Positions 3,895 through 13,238 of a stretch of DNA of 64,000 bases are shown piece by piece (within the stretch, counting starts at the first letter, position 1; every line of letters starts with the position of its first letter). The notes beneath the pieces were generated by a model that did no database searches, was not told the origin of the DNA, and saw only the letters and a program-made list of their open reading frames with translations. Origin of the DNA: Escherichia phage AnYang. Made by a program: the position numbers and the translations under genes. The stretch is taken from the sequence record MK234886; one strand, written 5' to 3'.

Positions 3895-5469
3895 ATGGCA
3901 AACTTTAATACAATATTAAGTTTTCTTAAGCCATGGGCTAATGAAGACGAAAAAGAATATAAACAACAAATTAATAACAATTTAGAGTCTGTCACCGCAC
4001 CTAAGCTTGATGATGGCGCTCGCGAAATTGAGACGCAAGAGCAAAATATTCCTTATAATGCTCTTATGCAACAGATGTTTGGTAGTAATGAGCCTGAAGT
4101 TAAAAATACCAGGGAACTTATTGATACCTACCGTAATTTAATGAATAACTATGAAGTCGACAACGCCGTACAGGAAATTGTGTCTGACGCTATTGTCTAT
4201 GAGGATGATAAAGAAGTAGTTGCATTGAATTTAGACGGGACAGAATTTAGTCAAGCAATTAAAGATAAAATCTTGGCCGAATTCAGTGAAGTTTTAAACC
4301 TTTTAAATTTCCAACGTAAAGGCACCGACCATTTCCAACGCTGGTATGTAGACTCAAGAATTTTCTTTCATAAAATTATAAACCCTAAAAAAATGAAAGA
4401 GGGCGTACAAGAGCTTCGTCGCTTAGACCCACGCCAAGTCCAATATATTCGTGAAATCGTTACACGTATGGAAGACGGTGTTAAAATTGTAGACGGATAT
4501 CGTGAGTTTTTCGTTTACGACACAGGTCATGAAAGCTATTGCGCAGATGGACGCGTTTATTCAGCCGGGACTAAAGTTAAAATTCCTCGTGCTGCTGTGG
4601 TTTATGCCCATTCAGGATTATTAGATTGTTGTGGTAAAAACATCATTGGCTATTTGCAACGTGCTATTAAGCCTGCAAACCAGCTTAAATTGATGGAAGA
4701 CGCAATGGTCATTTACCGTATTACCCGTGCTCCTGACCGTCGGGTGTTTTATATCGATACAGGTAATATGCCTTCACGTAAGGCTGCAGCACAAATGCAA
4801 CATATCATGAACACGATGAAAAACCGTGTAGTATATGATGCTTCGACAGGTAAAATTAAAAACCAACAACACAATATGTCCATGACTGAAGACTATTGGT
4901 TGCAACGTCGTGACGGTAAAGCGGTTACAGAAGTTGATACAATGCCAGGTGCTACTGGTATGAGTGATATGGATGACGTTCTTTATTTCCGCACAGCACT
5001 TTATCGTGCGCTGCGTGTTCCTGAATCACGTATCCCTAGCGAGTCTAATTCTGGTGTTATGTTTGATGCCGGTACAGCAATCACTCGTGACGAATTAAAA
5101 TTCTCTAAATGGATTCGTCAACTACAAAACAAATTTGAAGAAATTTTCCTAGACCCGTTAAAAACCAACCTCATTCTTAAAAAGATTATTACAGAAGATG
5201 AGTGGGAAAAGGAAATAAATAATATTAAAGTTACGTTTAACCGTGATAGCTATTTCAGTGAAATGAAAGATGCTGAAATCATGGAACGCAGAATCAATAT
5301 GCTAACGATGGCTGAACCATTTATTGGTAAGTACATTTCACATCAAACGGCTATGAAAGATTTCCTCCAAATGACTGACGAAGAAATTAATCAAGAAGCT
5401 AAGCAAATTGAAGAAGAGTCTAAAGAGGCTCGTTTCCAAAACCCAGATGAAGAAGAAGAGGATTTCTAA
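3895..5469 (+). CDS. 20: Portal vertex protein gp20
   Basis: 524 aa, same length as T4 gp20; long identical stretches ([49 protein letters not shown]). Confidence 0.95.
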
Positions 5470-5735
5470 TGGAAGATTTAATCGAAGCTATTAAATCAAA
5501 CGACCTCGTAGCAGTTCGTAAAGCAGCAGCCCCGCTTATCGAATCTCGAGTAGCCGCTTTGATTGAAGCCCGTAAAGCAGAAATTGCTCGCTCCGTTATG
5601 ATTGAAGGCGAAGAAGCTGACGAAGATGACGAAGACGAAGATAAAGACGAAAAATCCGATAAAGCAGATAAGAAAGACAAAAAAGAATCTGACGATGCGG
5701 ATGAAGGTGATGATGACGACGAGGACGACGAATAA
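5469..5735 (+). CDS. 67: Prohead core protein gp67 with poly-acidic C-terminus
   Basis: [15 protein letters not shown]... followed by an Asp/Glu-rich tail, as in T4 gp67; overlaps the gp20 stop (ATGTAA-type coupling). Confidence 0.85.
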
Positions 5736-6163
5736 TGTTCCTTATCCCTGATGATTACGAATTAACTCTAGAAAGCGTAGAGGCCAAAATTCCAGAAGCA
5801 CAGGGACGTTTTGCTGCTCTTTCTGAAGCGCTCGAGAAAAGCGATATAAATAATCTTGTAGAGAACATGATTGCTGAAGGCGATATCGAATGTGCTATCG
5901 CTCTTGGTTCTTTAAATGAATCAATGGCTCTTAACGAATTTATCGTTAAACACGTTTCCTCTAAAGGTGTGCTTACTCGTACTAAAGATATTAAAACCCG
6001 TCAACGTAACGCATTCCAAACGACCGGGTTATCTAAAGCAAAGCGCCGTCAGATTGCTCGCAAAGCATCTAAAACCAAACGTGCTAATCCATCTACTCAA
6101 GTGCGTGCTGAACGTAAGCGTAAGAAAGCCCGTTCTAAACGTAAAGCTTTTGGACTTAACTAA
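5735..6163 (+). CDS. 68: Prohead core protein gp68
   Basis: [15 protein letters not shown]... matches T4 gp68; basic C-terminus; position between 67 and 21. Confidence 0.85.
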
Positions 6164-6798
6164 TGAAACCTGAATTGCTCATCGAACATTGGGGACAACC
6201 AGGTGAAATTATCGATGGGGTTCCTATGTTGGAATCTCATGATGGAAAAAATTCTGGGCTTGCTCCCGGCCTTTATATAGAAGGCATTTTCATGCAAGCA
6301 GAGGTAGTTAACCGTAATAAACGCCTTTACCCAAAACCTATTTTGGAAAAAGCCGTTGCCGATTATATGGCAGAACAGGTTGCTACTAAACAAGCTTTAG
6401 GAGAATTAAACCACCCACCTCGTGCTAACGTTGACCCTATGCAAGCCGCTATTATTATTGAAGATATGTGGTGGAAAGGTAATGATGTTTATGGACGCGC
6501 ACGTATCATCGAAGGTGACCATGGCCCAGGTGATAAACTAGCTGCAAATATCCGTGCCGGTTGGGTTCCTGGTGTTAGTTCTCGTGGTCTTGGTTCTTTA
6601 ACCGAAACCAACAAAGGATATAAGCGTGTAAACGAAGGTTATAAATTAACCGTCGGTGTTGATGCAGTATGGGGACCATCTGCTCCTGATGCTTATGTAA
6701 CTCCAAAGCAAATTACAGAATCACAAACGGTAGAAACCGATACCAGTGCCGATGACGCCTTTATGGCTCTCGCAGAGGCCATGAAAAAAGCGTTATAA
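6163..6798 (+). CDS. 21: Prohead core scaffold protein and protease gp21
   Basis: LLIEHWGQPGEIIDGVPMLESHDGK...GELNHPPRANVDPMQAAIIIEDMWWKGNDVYGRAR nearly identical to T4 gp21. Confidence 0.95.
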   Translation: MKPELLIEHWGQPGEIIDGVPMLESHDGKNSGLAPGLYIEGIFMQAEVVNRNKRLYPKPILEKAVADYMAEQVATKQALGELNHPPRANVDPMQAAIIIEDMWWKGNDVYGRARIIEGDHGPGDKLAANIRAGWVPGVSSRGLGSLTETNKGYKRVNEGYKLTVGVDAVWGPSAPDAYVTPKQITESQTVETDTSADDAFMALAEAMKKAL

Positions 6799-6801
6799 AT
6801 A
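6794..6801 (+). promoter_or_regulatory. Late promoter box TATAAATA upstream of gene 22
   Basis: Exact TATAAATA overlapping the end of gene 21. Confidence 0.55.
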
Positions 6802-6828
6802 TTATTATCTAAACAACAGGACTACAAA

Positions 6829-7644
6829 ATGCTTAAAGAACAACTGATCGCCGAAGCACAGAATATTGATGCTTCCGTTGCTCTTGACAGTATTTTCGAA
6901 TCAGTTAATATTTCTCCGGAAGCAAAAGAAACTTTCGGCACTGTATTCGAAGCTACCGTCAAGCAACACGCCGTGAAACTGGCTGAATCTCACATCGCTA
7001 AAATCGCTGAAAAAGCGGAAGAAGAAGTCGAGAAAAATAAAGAAGAAGCTGAAGAAAAAGCCGATAAGAAAATCCAAGAAGCTGCCGGTCGTTTCCTTGA
7101 CCACGTTGCTAAAGAATGGATGGCTGAAAACCAGCTGGCTGTTGATAAAGGTATTAAAGCCGAACTGTTCGAATCCATGTTGATGGGTATGAAAGAACTG
7201 TTTGTTGAACACAATGTGGTTGTTCCAGAAGAAGCAGTAGATGTTGTTGCTGAAATGGAAGAAGAACTCCAAGAGCAGAAAGATGAAACCGCTCGTCTGT
7301 TCGAAGAAGTTGGTAAGCGCGACGCGTATATTAATTACGTACAGCGTGAAGTTGCTGTTACGGAAGCAACTAAAGACCTGACTGAATCTCAAAAAGAAAA
7401 AGTTAGTTCTCTGGTAGAAGGCATGGATTATTCCGATGCATTCGGTAAAAAAATTGGCGCTATTGTTGAAATGGTTAAAGGTCAGTCTGACGTTGAAAAC
7501 CCAATCACCGAAGCCGCTATAAATAAAAATGTAGACGATGCTGCGGCACTGAATTACATTTCAGAAGCAGTTGAAGAAAAAGGCGCTAAGCCTACCCTGT
7601 CCTTCGCGGACCTGTCTGCAATCGCAGCATCACGAATTTCTTAA
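6829..7644 (+). CDS. 22: Prohead core scaffold protein gp22
   Basis: 271 aa acidic coiled-coil-like protein in the gp22 position, length close to T4 gp22 (269 aa). Confidence 0.88.
   Translation: MLKEQLIAEAQNIDASVALDSIFESVNISPEAKETFGTVFEATVKQHAVKLAESHIAKIAEKAEEEVEKNKEEAEEKADKKIQEAAGRFLDHVAKEWMAENQLAVDKGIKAELFESMLMGMKELFVEHNVVVPEEAVDVVAEMEEELQEQKDETARLFEEVGKRDAYINYVQREVAVTEATKDLTESQKEKVSSLVEGMDYSDAFGKKIGAIVEMVKGQSDVENPITEAAINKNVDDAAALNYISEAVEEKGAKPTLSFADLSAIAASRIS
7518..7525 (+). promoter_or_regulatory. Late promoter box TATAAATA inside the 3' end of gene 22, upstream of gene 23
   Basis: Exact TATAAATA about 140 nt upstream of the gp23 ATG; T4 has an analogous promoter for gene 23 within gene 22. 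Confidence 0.5.
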
Positions 7645-7665
7645 TTTAATAAGGTTATACAACAC

Positions 7666-9225
7666 ATGAAAAAGAATGCATTAGTTCAAAAATGGTCCGC
7701 TCTGCTGGAAAACGAAGCCCTTCCTGAAATCGTGGGTGCTTCTAAACAAGCTATCATCGCTAAAATTTTCGAAAATCAGGAACAAGACATCCTGACTGCC
7801 CCGGAATACCGTGATGAAAAAATCTCCGAAGCATTTGGTTCTTTCCTGACCGAAGCTGAAATTGGTGGTGACCACGGTTATGATGCTACCAATATCGCAG
7901 CTGGCCAGACTTCTGGTGCTGTAACTCAGATTGGGCCGGCAGTAATGGGTATGGTTCGTCGTGCTATTCCTCATCTGATTGCTTTTGATATTTGTGGTGT
8001 TCAGCCTCTGAATAACCCTACCGGCCAGGTATTTGCCCTTCGTGCAGTTTATGGTAAAGACCCTATCGCTTCTGGCGCTAAAGAAGCTTTCCATCCGATG
8101 TATTCTCCAGACGCTATGTTCTCTGGTCAGGGTGCTGCTGAATCTTTCGAAGCACTGGCTGCAAGCAAAGTTCTGGAAGTTGGTAAAATTTATTCTCACT
8201 TCTTCGAAGCTACCGGTGCTGCACACTTCCAGGCTGTTGAAGCTGTAACCGTTGATGCAGGCGCTACTGATGCCGCTAAACTGGATGCTGCTGTTACCGC
8301 GTTGATTGAAGCTGGTAAGTTGGCTGAATTGGCTGAAGGTATGGCTACTTCTATCGCTGAACTTCAGGAAGGCTTTAACGGTTCTACCGATAACCCGTGG
8401 AACGAAATGGGCTTCCGCATCGACAAACAAGTTATCGAAGCTAAATCCCGTCAGCTGAAAGCAAGCTACTCTATCGAACTGGCACAGGACCTTCGTGCAG
8501 TACACGGTATGGATGCAGATGCTGAACTGTCCGGTATCCTTGCTACCGAAATTATGCTCGAAATCAACCGTGAAGTTATCGATTGGATTAACTACTCTGC
8601 ACAGGTTGGTAAATCTGGTATGACCAACACCGTTGGCGCTAAAGCTGGTGTGTTTGACTTCCAGGACCCGATTGATATCCGTGGTGCTCGTTGGGCCGGT
8701 GAGAGCTTTAAAGCCCTTCTGTTCCAGATTGATAAAGAAGCAGCCGAAATCGCTCGTCAGACCGGTCGTGGTGCTGGTAACTTCATCATCGCTTCCCGTA
8801 ACGTAGTTAACGTACTGGCTGCAGTTGATACTTCTGTAAGTTATGCAGCTCAAGGTCTGGGTCAAGGTTTCAACGTTGACACAACCAAAGCAGTATTTGC
8901 CGGTGTTCTTGGTGGTAAATATCGCGTTTACATCGACCAGTATGCACGTTCCGATTACTTCACCATCGGTTATAAAGGCGCTAACGAAATGGACGCAGGT
9001 ATCTACTATGCTCCGTACGTTGCACTGACCCCGCTGCGTGGTTCCGATCCGAAGAACTTCCAACCGGTAATGGGCTTCAAAACTCGTTACGGTATCGGTA
9101 TCAACCCGTTCGCTGACCCGTCTGCACAGGCTCCTACCAAACGTATTCAGAGCGGTATGCCTGACATCGTTAACAGCCTTGGTCTGAATGGTTACTTCCG
9201 TCGCGTATATGTTAAAGGTATCTAA
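7666..9225 (+). CDS. 23: Major capsid protein gp23
   Basis: 519 aa; long identical runs to T4 gp23 (GSFLTEAEIGGDHGY, TQIGPAVMGMVRRAIP, GSDPKNFQPVMGFKTRYGIGINPFA, FRRVYVKGI). Confidence 0.97.
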   Translation: MKKNALVQKWSALLENEALPEIVGASKQAIIAKIFENQEQDILTAPEYRDEKISEAFGSFLTEAEIGGDHGYDATNIAAGQTSGAVTQIGPAVMGMVRRAIPHLIAFDICGVQPLNNPTGQVFALRAVYGKDPIASGAKEAFHPMYSPDAMFSGQGAAESFEALAASKVLEVGKIYSHFFEATGAAHFQAVEAVTVDAGATDAAKLDAAVTALIEAGKLAELAEGMATSIAELQEGFNGSTDNPWNEMGFRIDKQVIEAKSRQLKASYSIELAQDLRAVHGMDADAELSGILATEIMLEINREVIDWINYSAQVGKSGMTNTVGAKAGVFDFQDPIDIRGARWAGESFKALLFQIDKEAAEIARQTGRGAGNFIIASRNVVNVLAAVDTSVSYAAQGLGQGFNVDTTKAVFAGVLGGKYRVYIDQYARSDYFTIGYKGANEMDAGIYYAPYVALTPLRGSDPKNFQPVMGFKTRYGIGINPFADPSAQAPTKRIQSGMPDIVNSLGLNGYFRRVYVKGI

Positions 9226-10954: not shown

Positions 10955-11962
10955 TTATTTGGATACTAGTTCAATCCAAACATGTCTTAATGTTTCTTTT
11001 ACAGACTCGATGAGTTGCTTTTTAACTTCAACAGGATTTTCAGCGTCAGTTAATTCTAATTCTTCACGGGCGGCTTCTTCTAAGATATCTTGGACTGTCA
11101 AGCCCATTACCTTTCCGAAATCCTTTTTAGATACTTCGCCAATCTTACTGATGACATTGTTAATGCGGTTAACAGTCACATAATCGGTGAATTGCCACAT
11201 CAAATCCATATCGTCTTGGGATAAAACTACCGCAGTCTTGATAGGCTTATCGGACTTTTTCTTCTCGCTGAATTTAGAGTTCTTACATTTAATCGCTACG
11301 CGATTTCCGTTTGGAAGCCAGGTAGGAATATCAGGTTTAAGTACAAAGCCTTCGGCTGTAAATACTTTACCTTCTACCTTAGGAATAAAGTCTGTCGAGT
11401 TTGCAATAGTTAGGCCAGCGTTATCCACTGCAAAATTATAATCAGGAATAACTGAATCAAAGTCGTTAGGTAATTTAATAAGGTCTTCAAAGCTACCGGT
11501 GGCCAGACATGGAGCTACCTTAAACTTATGGATAATACAGAAGGCTTCCATCAATGTATCGGTTAGAACAGATTCTGAGCCATCTTCCTTAGTAACTCGG
11601 ATATCGAACACATAAAAGTCTTTATCGCCGTAGTCCACATTCTTCTGGATACCTGTCCCAGCGAATTCGCCATAAATCTGGTACGACTGATAATTAATCG
11701 ATTCAATTAGATGTTGAACAGATTTAATAGAATCGGCATAGTTCTTAAGTACAATTTCATAACCATAGAAATCTTCAGCAGGGAGGATAGGGCCAGTGCG
11801 CTTGGCGCATGTGACTGCGTCACGTTCTATGATTAAACTAAAGTTGGTTCCATGAATCTTCTCACGTGCCACCCATTCACCACCGGTCAAACCATTAGTA
11901 CGGAGTTTTTCGATAAACTTACTGTTGTAGTGGTTTTCGAGACTGCTATATTTCTTGAACAT
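10955..11962 (-). CDS. rnlB: RNA ligase 2 (Rnl2, gene 24.1)
   Basis: [20 protein letters not shown]...[15 protein letters not shown]...[20 protein letters not shown] matches T4 Rnl2, including the nucleotidyltransferase lysine motif KIHGTN. Confidence 0.92.
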
Positions 11963-12076
11963 AAATCACCATAATAAATATAATTAAATAGAAGAGCTAG
12001 TAGTCTTCTGTCACCAAGCCAAATGGTTTAACGGAAGGACCTAGACCCATTATAACACACCTAAATTTAAAGCATA

Positions 12077-12286
12077 TTACTTTGAACCAGAACGCGCTTT
12101 GCGCCGAACCTTGTTGTTCAATCTTTTACGATAAACAACCTTTTCTTTCGCTTTAAATTTGGCCTTGGCTTGTTCTACATCAACCCATGCTTTGGCCATG
12201 TCCTTAGCGGTCCCGCCCATTTTTTTAGCAATTTCTATAAAATTCAACCCAGATTCGTGTAAAAAATGTACTTTAACCTTATCCAT
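12077..12286 (-). CDS. Small putative helix-turn-helix DNA-binding protein (about 69 aa) with a basic C-terminal tail
   Basis: HTH-like segment SGLNFIEIAKKMGGTAKDMAKAW followed by a Lys/Arg-rich tail; start taken at MDKVKV (RBS GAGAG), the ORF opens earlier at 12325; occupies the T4 24.2/24.3 position. Confidence 0.45.
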   Translation of the reverse strand: MDKVKVHFLHESGLNFIEIAKKMGGTAKDMAKAWVDVEQAKAKFKAKEKVVYRKRLNNKVRRKARSGSK

Positions 12287-12370
12287 AACAATTCTCTCGT
12301 TGAGTTGGTAAACCCATCTTAACATAGGATTTTTAACTTGTAAACAGGAATTTTGTACTTTAATGCAAAA

Positions 12371-12386
12371 TGGGCCTTGCGGCCCA
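12371..12386 (-). terminator. Stem-loop terminator after hoc
   Basis: TGGGCC-ttgc-GGCCCA hairpin followed on the minus strand by TTTTGCATT. Confidence 0.55.
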
Positions 12387-12389
12387 TAA

Positions 12390-13238
12390 TTAGTAAACGT
12401 AATCGTATATAATACCAGCTTCTAAAGCGGTGCGATGAATAATTCGACCATTACGAGATTCTTGTACATCAACCTCTGGATAGTCGGTAATCATTTTTTG
12501 AAGTGTGTATCGGTGCAAATAATACGGGCTATCCGGGCTATCAGTTTTCCAGTCTTGCCCAGCAAGAGTCATTTTCTGAATTTCGTCCATAACCCACCAA
12601 CCGCACCAAATATAAGCTGAATTACGTACTGGCAATGGATGTACATAAGGTAATTCGCCATCTGGAACTGGTGCGACTTTAGCCGTGACTGTTACATTAC
12701 CGGTTTTGGTAACGGTTGCAGGGTTATAATCAGTCGCCGAAACCACAACAGAAACTTCAATAACCTGTGAACCTTCAGCGCTTGTATCGATTGCTAGAGT
12801 ATCCGTGGTGCCAACTACAGGAGAACCGTCTTTCTTCCAAGAATAGGCAAAAGTAGCTCCACTCGGTGCGCCGACGACATCCGCTTTAAAAGAGGCCGGG
12901 GTGTCTTCCGGAACATTAATTGATTCTGGGGTTAATGTCACAGAAACACCAGTCATTGTTTTATTCTGGATAGTTAAAGTTGTTTCGGCTTCAGCTGTTT
13001 CTGGTTCGCCATCCGCCGGTGTAGTTGTTGCAACAACTTTAATAGTCTTGCTGCCTGCTGGACCAACTGCGACATAATCCATTGCTGCAGTCACAGAAGA
13101 TTGAGGAACACCATCAACGGTCCAGACAAATGATTCGGTACCTTCAGCTGCAGCACCGGAACCGGTCGCAGTGAAATTGGTTGTTGCTCCAATAACGGCC
13201 GTAGCCGCCAAAGGAGCAATAGTTACGGTATAAGCCAT
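12390..13238 (-). CDS. hoc: Outer capsid decoration protein Hoc (shorter than T4 Hoc)
   Basis: Ig-like Thr/Val-rich repeats, then a C-terminal capsid-binding region (YVHPLPVRNSAYIW...GQDWKTDSPDSPYYLHRYTLQKM...PEVDVQESRNG) matching the T4 Hoc C-terminus; 282 aa against 376 in T4. Confidence 0.85.
   Translation of the reverse strand: MAYTVTIAPLAATAVIGATTNFTATGSGAAAEGTESFVWTVDGVPQSSVTAAMDYVAVGPAGSKTIKVVATTTPADGEPETAEAETTLTIQNKTMTGVSVTLTPESINVPEDTPASFKADVVGAPSGATFAYSWKKDGSPVVGTTDTLAIDTSAEGSQVIEVSVVVSATDYNPATVTKTGNVTVTAKVAPVPDGELPYVHPLPVRNSAYIWCGWWVMDEIQKMTLAGQDWKTDSPDSPYYLHRYTLQKMITDYPEVDVQESRNGRIIHRTALEAGIIYDYVY

Follow-up and report, generated by a model that had tools for sequence, protein, structure and literature searches.

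In bacteriophage T4, the interval between hoc and rnlB holds two genes, 24.3 and 24.2. The family of 24.3 is already catalogued as a conserved hypothetical (T4 24.3, DUF2774, PHROG 1566) and is therefore not new, but a literature search found no mention of DUF2774, gp24.3, P39492, PF11242 or phrog_1566 in the main text of papers. Supplementary files 4 and 6 of a time-resolved T4 omics study (PMC9697503) place T4 24.3 in the 'early-RNA_middle-Protein' class, an assignment which implies that both its transcript and its protein were detected. In the supplements of the CRISPRi-ART study (PMC11879866), knock-down of 24.3 is scored 'Not Fit', i.e. without effect on fitness, and Extended Data Table 6 of the HIDEN-SEQ study (bioRxiv 10.1101/2025.11.20.689424) gives insertions at 14 of 14 TA sites and the call 'Non-essential'. 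By these two genome-wide screens, T4 24.3 is dispensable in the laboratory. The HIDEN-SEQ tables also compare a reference with a delta-rnlA host library; for 24.3 the log2FC was -0.38 and was not significant (p 0.61; bioRxiv 10.1101/2025.11.20.689424).

The deposited T4 sequences display one oddity. The RefSeq gene (L001, NC_000866.4, 1416-1586) differs from the gene for a 67-aa form (L024, L026, L027 and L033, 4001-4204) by an in-frame gap of 33 nt, and its 56-aa product is without 11 residues of the long helix described below. The gap is bounded exactly by a pair of CTCGAG (XhoI) sites, GGGCTCGAG[CTATGACTGCTAAGAATAAATTTGAGACTCGAG]AAAAAG; it looks as if the historical sequence had missed an XhoI fragment of 33 bp, or as if the stretch between the two 6-bp repeats had been deleted. 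The 67-aa form has 406 matching records with an identity of 99% or more, and the annotation used for HIDEN-SEQ (AF158101.6) already has a 24.3 gene of 204 nt.

A 24.3 orthologue in phage AnYang

The DNA analysed here (the window) is a stretch of 64,000 nt from Escherichia phage AnYang (MK234886). Its closest DNA match is phage C6 (96.9% over 2.4 kb), followed by MX01, WG01, Bp7 and JS98; by sequence, it is a Dhakavirus-type T4-like phage. An earlier note, made from the letters of the window, had drawn attention to an ORF of about 69 codons in the hoc-rnlB gap, which might encode a small DNA-binding regulator. The ORF runs on the minus strand from the ATG at 12286 to the TAA at 12079-12077, and its product is MDKVKVHFLHESGLNFIEIAKKMGGTAKDMAKAWVDVEQAKAKFKAKEKVVYRKRLNNKVRRKARSGSK.

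12077-12286, minus strand: coding sequence of the 69-aa protein, orthologue of T4 24.3, DUF2774, PHROG 1566 (stop codon counted)
12294-12298, minus strand: Shine-Dalgarno-like GAGAG, 7 nt 5' of the ATG (read from the sequence)

A longer form of 82 aa, starting from an ATG at 12325, appeared in the program-made ORF list and was rejected. That ATG falls inside a -10 hexamer (see below), homologues of the protein begin at the MDK position and a Shine-Dalgarno sequence precedes the ATG at 12286; for these reasons the 69-aa form is the right one.

The gene order is inh-hoc-ORF-rnlB-gp24, with uvsW, like inh, lying beyond hoc. The upstream neighbour is hoc (12390-13238, minus strand) and the downstream one is rnlB, the gene for RNA ligase 2 (10955-11962, minus strand). 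Between the stop codon of the ORF and rnlB there is a non-coding gap of 114 nt: no ORF was found in the window between 12077 and 11962. No paralogue turned up in the window when all its six-frame ORFs were searched by HMM, and an identical protein (100%) is already deposited for Escherichia phage fDHCT2.

The 69-aa protein matches Pfam DUF2774 (PF11242) with an E-value of 5e-30 and 103.8 bits against a cut-off of 29.2, over model positions 1-62 of 63, and PHROG 1566 (phrog_1566) with an E-value of 3.5e-31. The DUF2774 match is also present in all 34 aligned relatives. T4 gp24.3 (NP_049792; UniProt P39492; 24.3) is of similar size and is likewise encoded by the gene that comes next after hoc, on the strand of rnlB; its forms align with the AnYang protein over the full length, at 47-51% identity, and share with it an invariant EKVVYRKR motif and the predicted architecture. 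Since the two genes occupy a common slot and their products align from end to end, it is near certain that the AnYang gene is the positional orthologue of T4 24.3. The two loci also differ: the AnYang protein has a longer and more basic tail (RRKARSGSK), AnYang has no 24.2, which in T4 directly follows 24.3, and the promoter of the AnYang gene is of the early sigma-70 type.

On some homologues GenBank carries quite another name, 'DNA primase-helicase subunit', and that the protein is one deserves next to no credence. The name is found in Yersinia phage vB_YenM_P8 and in several Klebsiella and Enterobacter phages (e.g. L002, 2501-2728), as well as on a 243-aa KPP95 entry, Q0MUT0. The latter is its apparent source, and the name looks as if it had spread from a single old ORF that was fused or mis-called. 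At 69 residues, the protein contains no catalytic motif, and no primase (Toprim or zinc-binding) or DnaB-type helicase domain was found in Pfam, NCBIfam or PHROGs, so that domain searches refute this identity. Furthermore, T4 24.3 is non-essential, in contrast to the replication genes 41 and 61, which are the primase-helicase genes of T4. The present analysis thus corrects an unsupported name that is spreading through annotations.

Selection on the reading frame and its most conserved motif

Comparison of the AnYang ORF with relatives whose proteins are 80-90% identical shows changes at 21-32 of about 34 synonymous sites, against only 9-17 of about 143 non-synonymous sites; dN/dS is about 0.03-0.05 where computable. 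Purifying selection on the ORF is thus strong, which marks it as a genuine coding gene, and a spurious ORF is excluded by this analysis. Together with the Pfam match, it confirms the gene that the earlier note had proposed in the gap.

The most conserved stretch of the family is the following:

12122-12145, minus strand: motif EKVVYRKR, residues 48-55

In the form (E/P)K(V/I)VYRKR, the motif shows little or no variation among 31-34 family members. Among the 31 distinct genes, residues G13, F16, A20, V51, Y52, R53 and K54 are invariant, and E11, I19, E48, K49 and R55 nearly so. Their codons are not: three to six different ones are used at each of G13, A20, V51, R53 and R55, and the invariant Val and Arg positions show four to six, with both CGN and AGR for arginine. 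Given this free use of synonymous codons, EK(V/I)VYRKR is conserved as protein and not as an overlapping DNA signal.

Distribution and synteny

A tblastn search with the 69-aa protein returned 476 phage records at E <= 1e-5. The 67-aa T4 form matched 1,074 records at E <= 1e-3, in phages of Escherichia, Klebsiella, Shigella, Enterobacter, Yersinia, Salmonella, Serratia, Citrobacter, Aeromonas and other hosts; as a comparison, RnlB matched 1,388. The survey of related phages that had been suggested for this gene revealed strong conservation. Word-indexed homologue searches found close relatives only, and a profile search run exhaustively against 1.84 billion representative proteins yielded no more than 52 clusters at E <= 1e-3, from which we conclude that the family is abundant but narrow, being essentially confined to T4-like phages. 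That search showed no informative domain fusion; the few long matches with multiple matching stretches that it returned resemble helical repeat proteins. The only hint of a DUF2774-like module outside T4-like phages is P0073, a protein of 156 aa, Arg-rich and of high-GC style, with two tandem DUF2774-like helix-turn-helix (HTH) units and a marginal match (E 3.4e-4).

In each of the 33 loci examined, the homologue lies within the interval from hoc/inh to gp24, on the rnlB strand. The region had been described as variable among T4-like phages: this holds for the genes between the ORF and rnlB, not for the ORF itself, which is a conserved anchor in the 33 loci. The intervening ORFs vary by genus: 24.2-like ones were detected in about one third of the loci and unrelated ones in others, and the window has none. 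Two side observations concern individual loci. In L018 (Enterobacter phage CC31-type, 4001-4582), the 24.3 homologue and the downstream ORF are joined in frame into one protein of 193 aa (UniProt E5DIJ3, 'Uncharacterized protein 24.3'); the fusion may be genuine or may stem from a frameshift in the sequence as deposited. Many relatives (L005, L007-L013 and others; about 5370-8170) have two tandem gp24-like vertex genes, with about 52% and 68% identity to the gp24 of the window; the window and L006 have a single gp24 adjoining rnlB.

The synteny bears on two explanations of the gene. One is that its product is an RNA-binding helper of RnlB, whose basic helix, rich in Tyr, Arg and Lys, would bind RNA, for instance damaged tRNA or mRNA, and assist the ligase encoded downstream in RNA repair. 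The protein is indeed strongly basic, its basic motif contains an invariant aromatic residue, and in about 28 of the 33 loci rnlB follows the homologue at 0.1-1.3 kb on the same strand. Yet the association is not strict: rnlB lies upstream of the homologue in L023 and was not found within 4 kb downstream in L028, L029 and L031, while the genes between the two vary freely. In the window, a separate promoter-like element for rnlB follows the stop of the ORF, and the fold predicted below is typical of proteins that bind duplex DNA. We consider a role in RNA repair quite unlikely.

The other explanation makes the protein the HTH partner, antitoxin-like or autoregulatory, of an overlapping downstream gene, as 24.3 might be for 24.2 in T4. 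It draws on the overlap of the stop codon with the start of the next small ORF in T4 and in Klebsiella, Pectobacterium and Proteus-type phages. Such an arrangement is very improbable: the partner ORFs are unrelated to one another, homologues of 24.2 were detected downstream in about one third of the loci, and PADLOC gave no match. For AnYang the antitoxin-like reading is largely refuted, the window and its close relatives having no downstream partner ORF.

Transcription signals around the gene

Three elements flank the ORF, all on its strand:

12366-12387, minus strand: intrinsic terminator of hoc, with a 7-bp GC-rich stem, a GCAA loop and a T-run (from the sequence)
12316-12345, minus strand: sigma-70 promoter of the T4 early type, GTTTACA, 17-nt spacer, TG-n-TAAGAT (scan and conservation in relatives)
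12049-12074, minus strand: middle-promoter-like element after the stop codon, TGCTTTA (MotA-box-like), 13 nt, TATAAT (conservation in relatives)

The hairpin of the terminator, ATGGGCCGCAAGGCCCAT, stands just past the stop codon of hoc and, with the T-run that follows, is placed at 12387-12370; the late transcript of hoc is thereby kept apart from the 69-aa gene. The promoter-like sequence, TTTACA-17-TAAGAT with a TG ahead of the -10, occupies 12344-12316. When the -35 is shifted by one base it reads GTTTAC, the form of T4 early promoters. A scan with the promoter consensus gave three sites where 1.8 were expected, which is weak evidence taken alone. However, the block cctGTTTACaagttaaaaat.c.atgTTAAGAT has been kept in relatives L009-L013, whose upstream gene and sequence are wholly different, and its retention there argues that the early-type promoter is probably functional. 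The conservation covers Dhakavirus and Gaprivervirus-type relatives. Both the terminator and the early-promoter-like element noticed earlier upstream of the ORF are thus real.

The class of promoter ahead of 24.3 homologues varies by genus. In many genera (L003, L016, L020, L022 and L030) the hoc terminator is followed by a MotA-box-like GCTT(T) and a -10, about 60-100 nt upstream of position 4001 (2501 in L003); the Dhakavirus and Gaprivervirus types have the early-type GTTTAC-17-TAAGAT instead. As a promoter of either early or middle type precedes the homologues across genera, prereplicative expression seems to be a family trait despite the differing promoter class. A search of the promoter regions of the different genera for a conserved operator-like repeat found none.

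The element located after the stop codon contains TGCTTTA, which resembles the MotA box, and is laid out like a MotA-dependent middle promoter of T4. Relatives L005, L008, L009 and L012 have kept it and L018 has a similar one; judging by its sequence it would give rnlB its own promoter. The cassette is conserved together with an 85-nt leader in L005, L008 and L012, and in L009 it precedes a different gene. Folding of the 87-nt rnlB leader was no better than that of shuffled sequences (z = 0.01), and there was no Rfam match in 11800-12500.

Predicted fold of the 69-aa protein

AlphaFold2, supplied with a 17-sequence alignment, modelled the protein as three helices (residues 2-11, 16-23 and 27-67) with a mean pLDDT of 87.1. 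With the 67-aa T4 form as target, the same three-helix architecture was obtained (pLDDT 87.3). The model divides the protein into two parts:

12185-12253, minus strand: HTH core, residues 12-34, i.e. the end of helix 1, helix 2 (16-23) and the start of helix 3 (27 on); neutral (AlphaFold2)
12080-12166, minus strand: basic C-terminal half, residues 41-69, net charge +13, with helix 3 continuing to about residue 67 (AlphaFold2, charge count)

The first part is predicted to be a neutral three-helix HTH of the kind found in sigma region 4, LuxR and resolvase. In the second, helix 3 is predicted to run about 30 residues further as a highly basic helix which bears EK(V/I)VYRKR. A helix of 40 residues exposed to solvent is unlikely to be stable alone, so the protein probably oligomerises or folds when it binds, and the modelled C-terminal half may be valid only within a complex or an oligomer.

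The segment that the earlier note had called HTH-like, SGLNFIEIAKKMGGTAKDMAKAW, corresponds to residues 12-34. As a predicted fold this assignment is upheld, given the pLDDT of 87, the similar model for the T4 orthologue and the recurrence of sub-threshold HTH matches among the relatives. Profile searches, another check envisaged at the time, did not yield a significant HTH family. In the 69-aa protein, Pfam gave DUF2774 only, with none of Sigma70_r4, Sigma70_r4_2 and GerE at E-values up to 10, and neither NCBIfam nor PADLOC had a match. Sub-threshold Pfam matches among the 34 relatives were to HTH_38 (6 members), Sigma70_r4_2 (5), HTH_40 (4), GerE (3), HTH_7 (3) and Sigma70_r4 (1), the best HTH E-values, 0.003-0.05, being reached in 3-6 of the 34. 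None of Sigma70_r4, Sigma70_r4_2 and GerE was significant (best E-values in relatives 0.023, 0.023 and 0.0029, respectively), nor was there a significant profile match to HTH_7, HTH_38 or HTH_psq, which were sub-threshold in 3-6 of the 34.

Searches of the PDB gave a similar picture. With the single protein or the 34-member profile as query, no significant natural match was obtained at the sequence level. The profile gave weak matches to VirB, IstA and RpoE (E 0.03 or worse); the best sequence matches were designed repeat proteins, which were discarded as chance hits because they arise through repeated weak stretches. An hhalign comparison with the HTH of Hin brought helix 1 and helix 2 into the expected register, with a probability of 1.5%. 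The predicted HTH can be superposed on solved members of the sigma-70 region 4 and LuxR-GerE groups, and Foldseek against the PDB matched three-helix HTH domains with E-values above 1, as expected with so short a query. This likeness is generic: LuxR, resolvase, IS21 and MarR domains score as well as sigma region 4. Against BFVD, Foldseek ranked family members on top, then small phage HTH proteins; the Aeh1 homologue appears there as 'HTH psq-type domain-containing protein'. Taking the models and searches together, the HTH is well supported as a predicted fold, though not as a member of a particular HTH family.

Charge distribution and the putative recognition helix

The protein has a pI of 10.5, with 20 Lys and Arg residues against 7 Asp and Glu. 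The net charge is 0 for residues 1-40 and +13 for residues 41-69, in agreement with the Lys/Arg-rich C-terminus reported before. Throughout the family the N-terminal part carries a net charge between -3 and +2 and the C-terminal part between +6 and +15, the strongly basic region beginning about 12 residues before the YRK motif.

The helix expected to lie in the major groove and read DNA in an HTH, here TAKDMAKAWVDVEQ, is neutral, has an acidic residue at a conserved position (D/E29) and otherwise differs among genera, its pattern across the family being T/S-A-K-D/E-x-A-x-x-W. The strongest constraint, on EK(V/I)VYRKR, lies 15-25 residues beyond it. A conserved sequence-specific reading head is unlikely, the putative recognition helix being neutral, acidic at one position and variable. 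For the family as a whole, the sequences of this helix argue against a conserved specific DNA site.

These properties of the helix invite an explanation in which the HTH binds protein. The 69-aa protein would then mimic region 4 of a sigma factor, or be some other factor associated with RNA polymerase: the HTH would serve as a protein-interaction surface, for instance with the beta-flap, AsiA, an activator or an anti-sigma factor, and the basic helix would tether the protein to DNA or RNA, making up a T4-type device that redirects the host RNA polymerase. T4 encodes proposed sigma look-alikes (srd and srh) and binders of region 4 (AsiA, MotA and gp33). Such a role would suit a would-be DNA-reading helix that is neutral and variable, and expression before replication, at the time when T4 remodels RNA polymerase. 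Against it, the likeness of fold is generic to three-helix HTHs and the sequence similarity to sigma-70 region 4 is not above noise; we regard the mimicry as unlikely, if worth bearing in mind. Only a slim chance attaches to its full-blown form, in which DUF2774 proteins in general are free-standing mimics of sigma region 4, with the neutral HTH engaging a region-4 partner (the beta-flap tip, AsiA/MotA, or a host anti-sigma factor or activator) and the YRKR helix anchoring on nucleic acid. If true, the protein would be an unrecognised player in the takeover of RNA polymerase by T4-type phages, relevant only in some hosts, and a protein directed at RNA polymerase in this way would be of interest to the phage transcription field.

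Most probable function

On balance, and with moderate confidence, we infer that the gene encodes a dispensable prereplicative accessory protein of about 8 kDa that binds nucleic acid, most likely DNA, by means of an HTH and a basic helix. The ligand would most probably be double-stranded DNA. The HTH would dock on the duplex and set the geometry of docking, and the basic helix with its Tyr-Arg-Lys-Arg motif would provide most of the affinity through contacts with the backbone or a groove; alternatively, this helix with its invariant Tyr and Arg/Lys residues may be a partner-binding site. During the early phase of infection, binding would modulate transcription or some other DNA transaction, with an effect that would count only in certain hosts or conditions.

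An accessory protein of this generic kind, small and DNA-binding, would be routine, and little is added to a gene family catalogued since the annotation of the T4 genome. What the analysis offers is a structural hypothesis for a conserved hypothetical protein that over 1,000 T4-like genomes encode: a neutral HTH of the sigma-4/LuxR kind joined to a long basic helix, with an invariant motif selected at the protein level.

Comparison with known helix-turn-helix systems

The solved structures of the sigma region 4 and LuxR-GerE groups (EsrB, 7vim; sigma-28, 1rp3; sigma-E region 4, 2h27; RcsB, 6zj2) have no significant sequence similarity with the 69-aa protein. Their HTHs are domains of larger proteins, whereas the 69-aa protein is free-standing. 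In sigma region 4 and LuxR a fourth helix folds back; in the AnYang model there is none, and helix 3 runs on as a basic helix. The surface of the recognition helix is neutral, unlike that of the sigma region 4 and LuxR-GerE domains.

The sequence pattern of the 69-aa protein, h..h.E.G.sF.eIA..hG.s..e, belongs to the type of the simple HTHs of resolvase/Hin, IS30 (HTH_38), IS21 IstA and psq proteins. The matches of DUF2774 proteins to the resolvase, IS30 and IS21 type, i.e. to HTH_38 (6 members), HTH_7 (3 members) and IstA, are all non-significant. Basic residues flank the HTH in Hin, as they do in the 69-aa protein, but the basic extension of the latter is predicted to be a long helix, against a short minor-groove arm in the Hin type. 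There is also no recombinase or transposase domain, unlike in the resolvase/Hin, IS30 and IS21 proteins.

The last systems compared were small phage HTHs, namely the GcrA-like ones and the N-terminal HTH of the small terminase subunit, which matched with E-values of 0.36 or worse. The 69-aa protein does not have the GcrA signature sequence, and a terminase subunit, in contrast to the product of this gene, is neither early nor dispensable.
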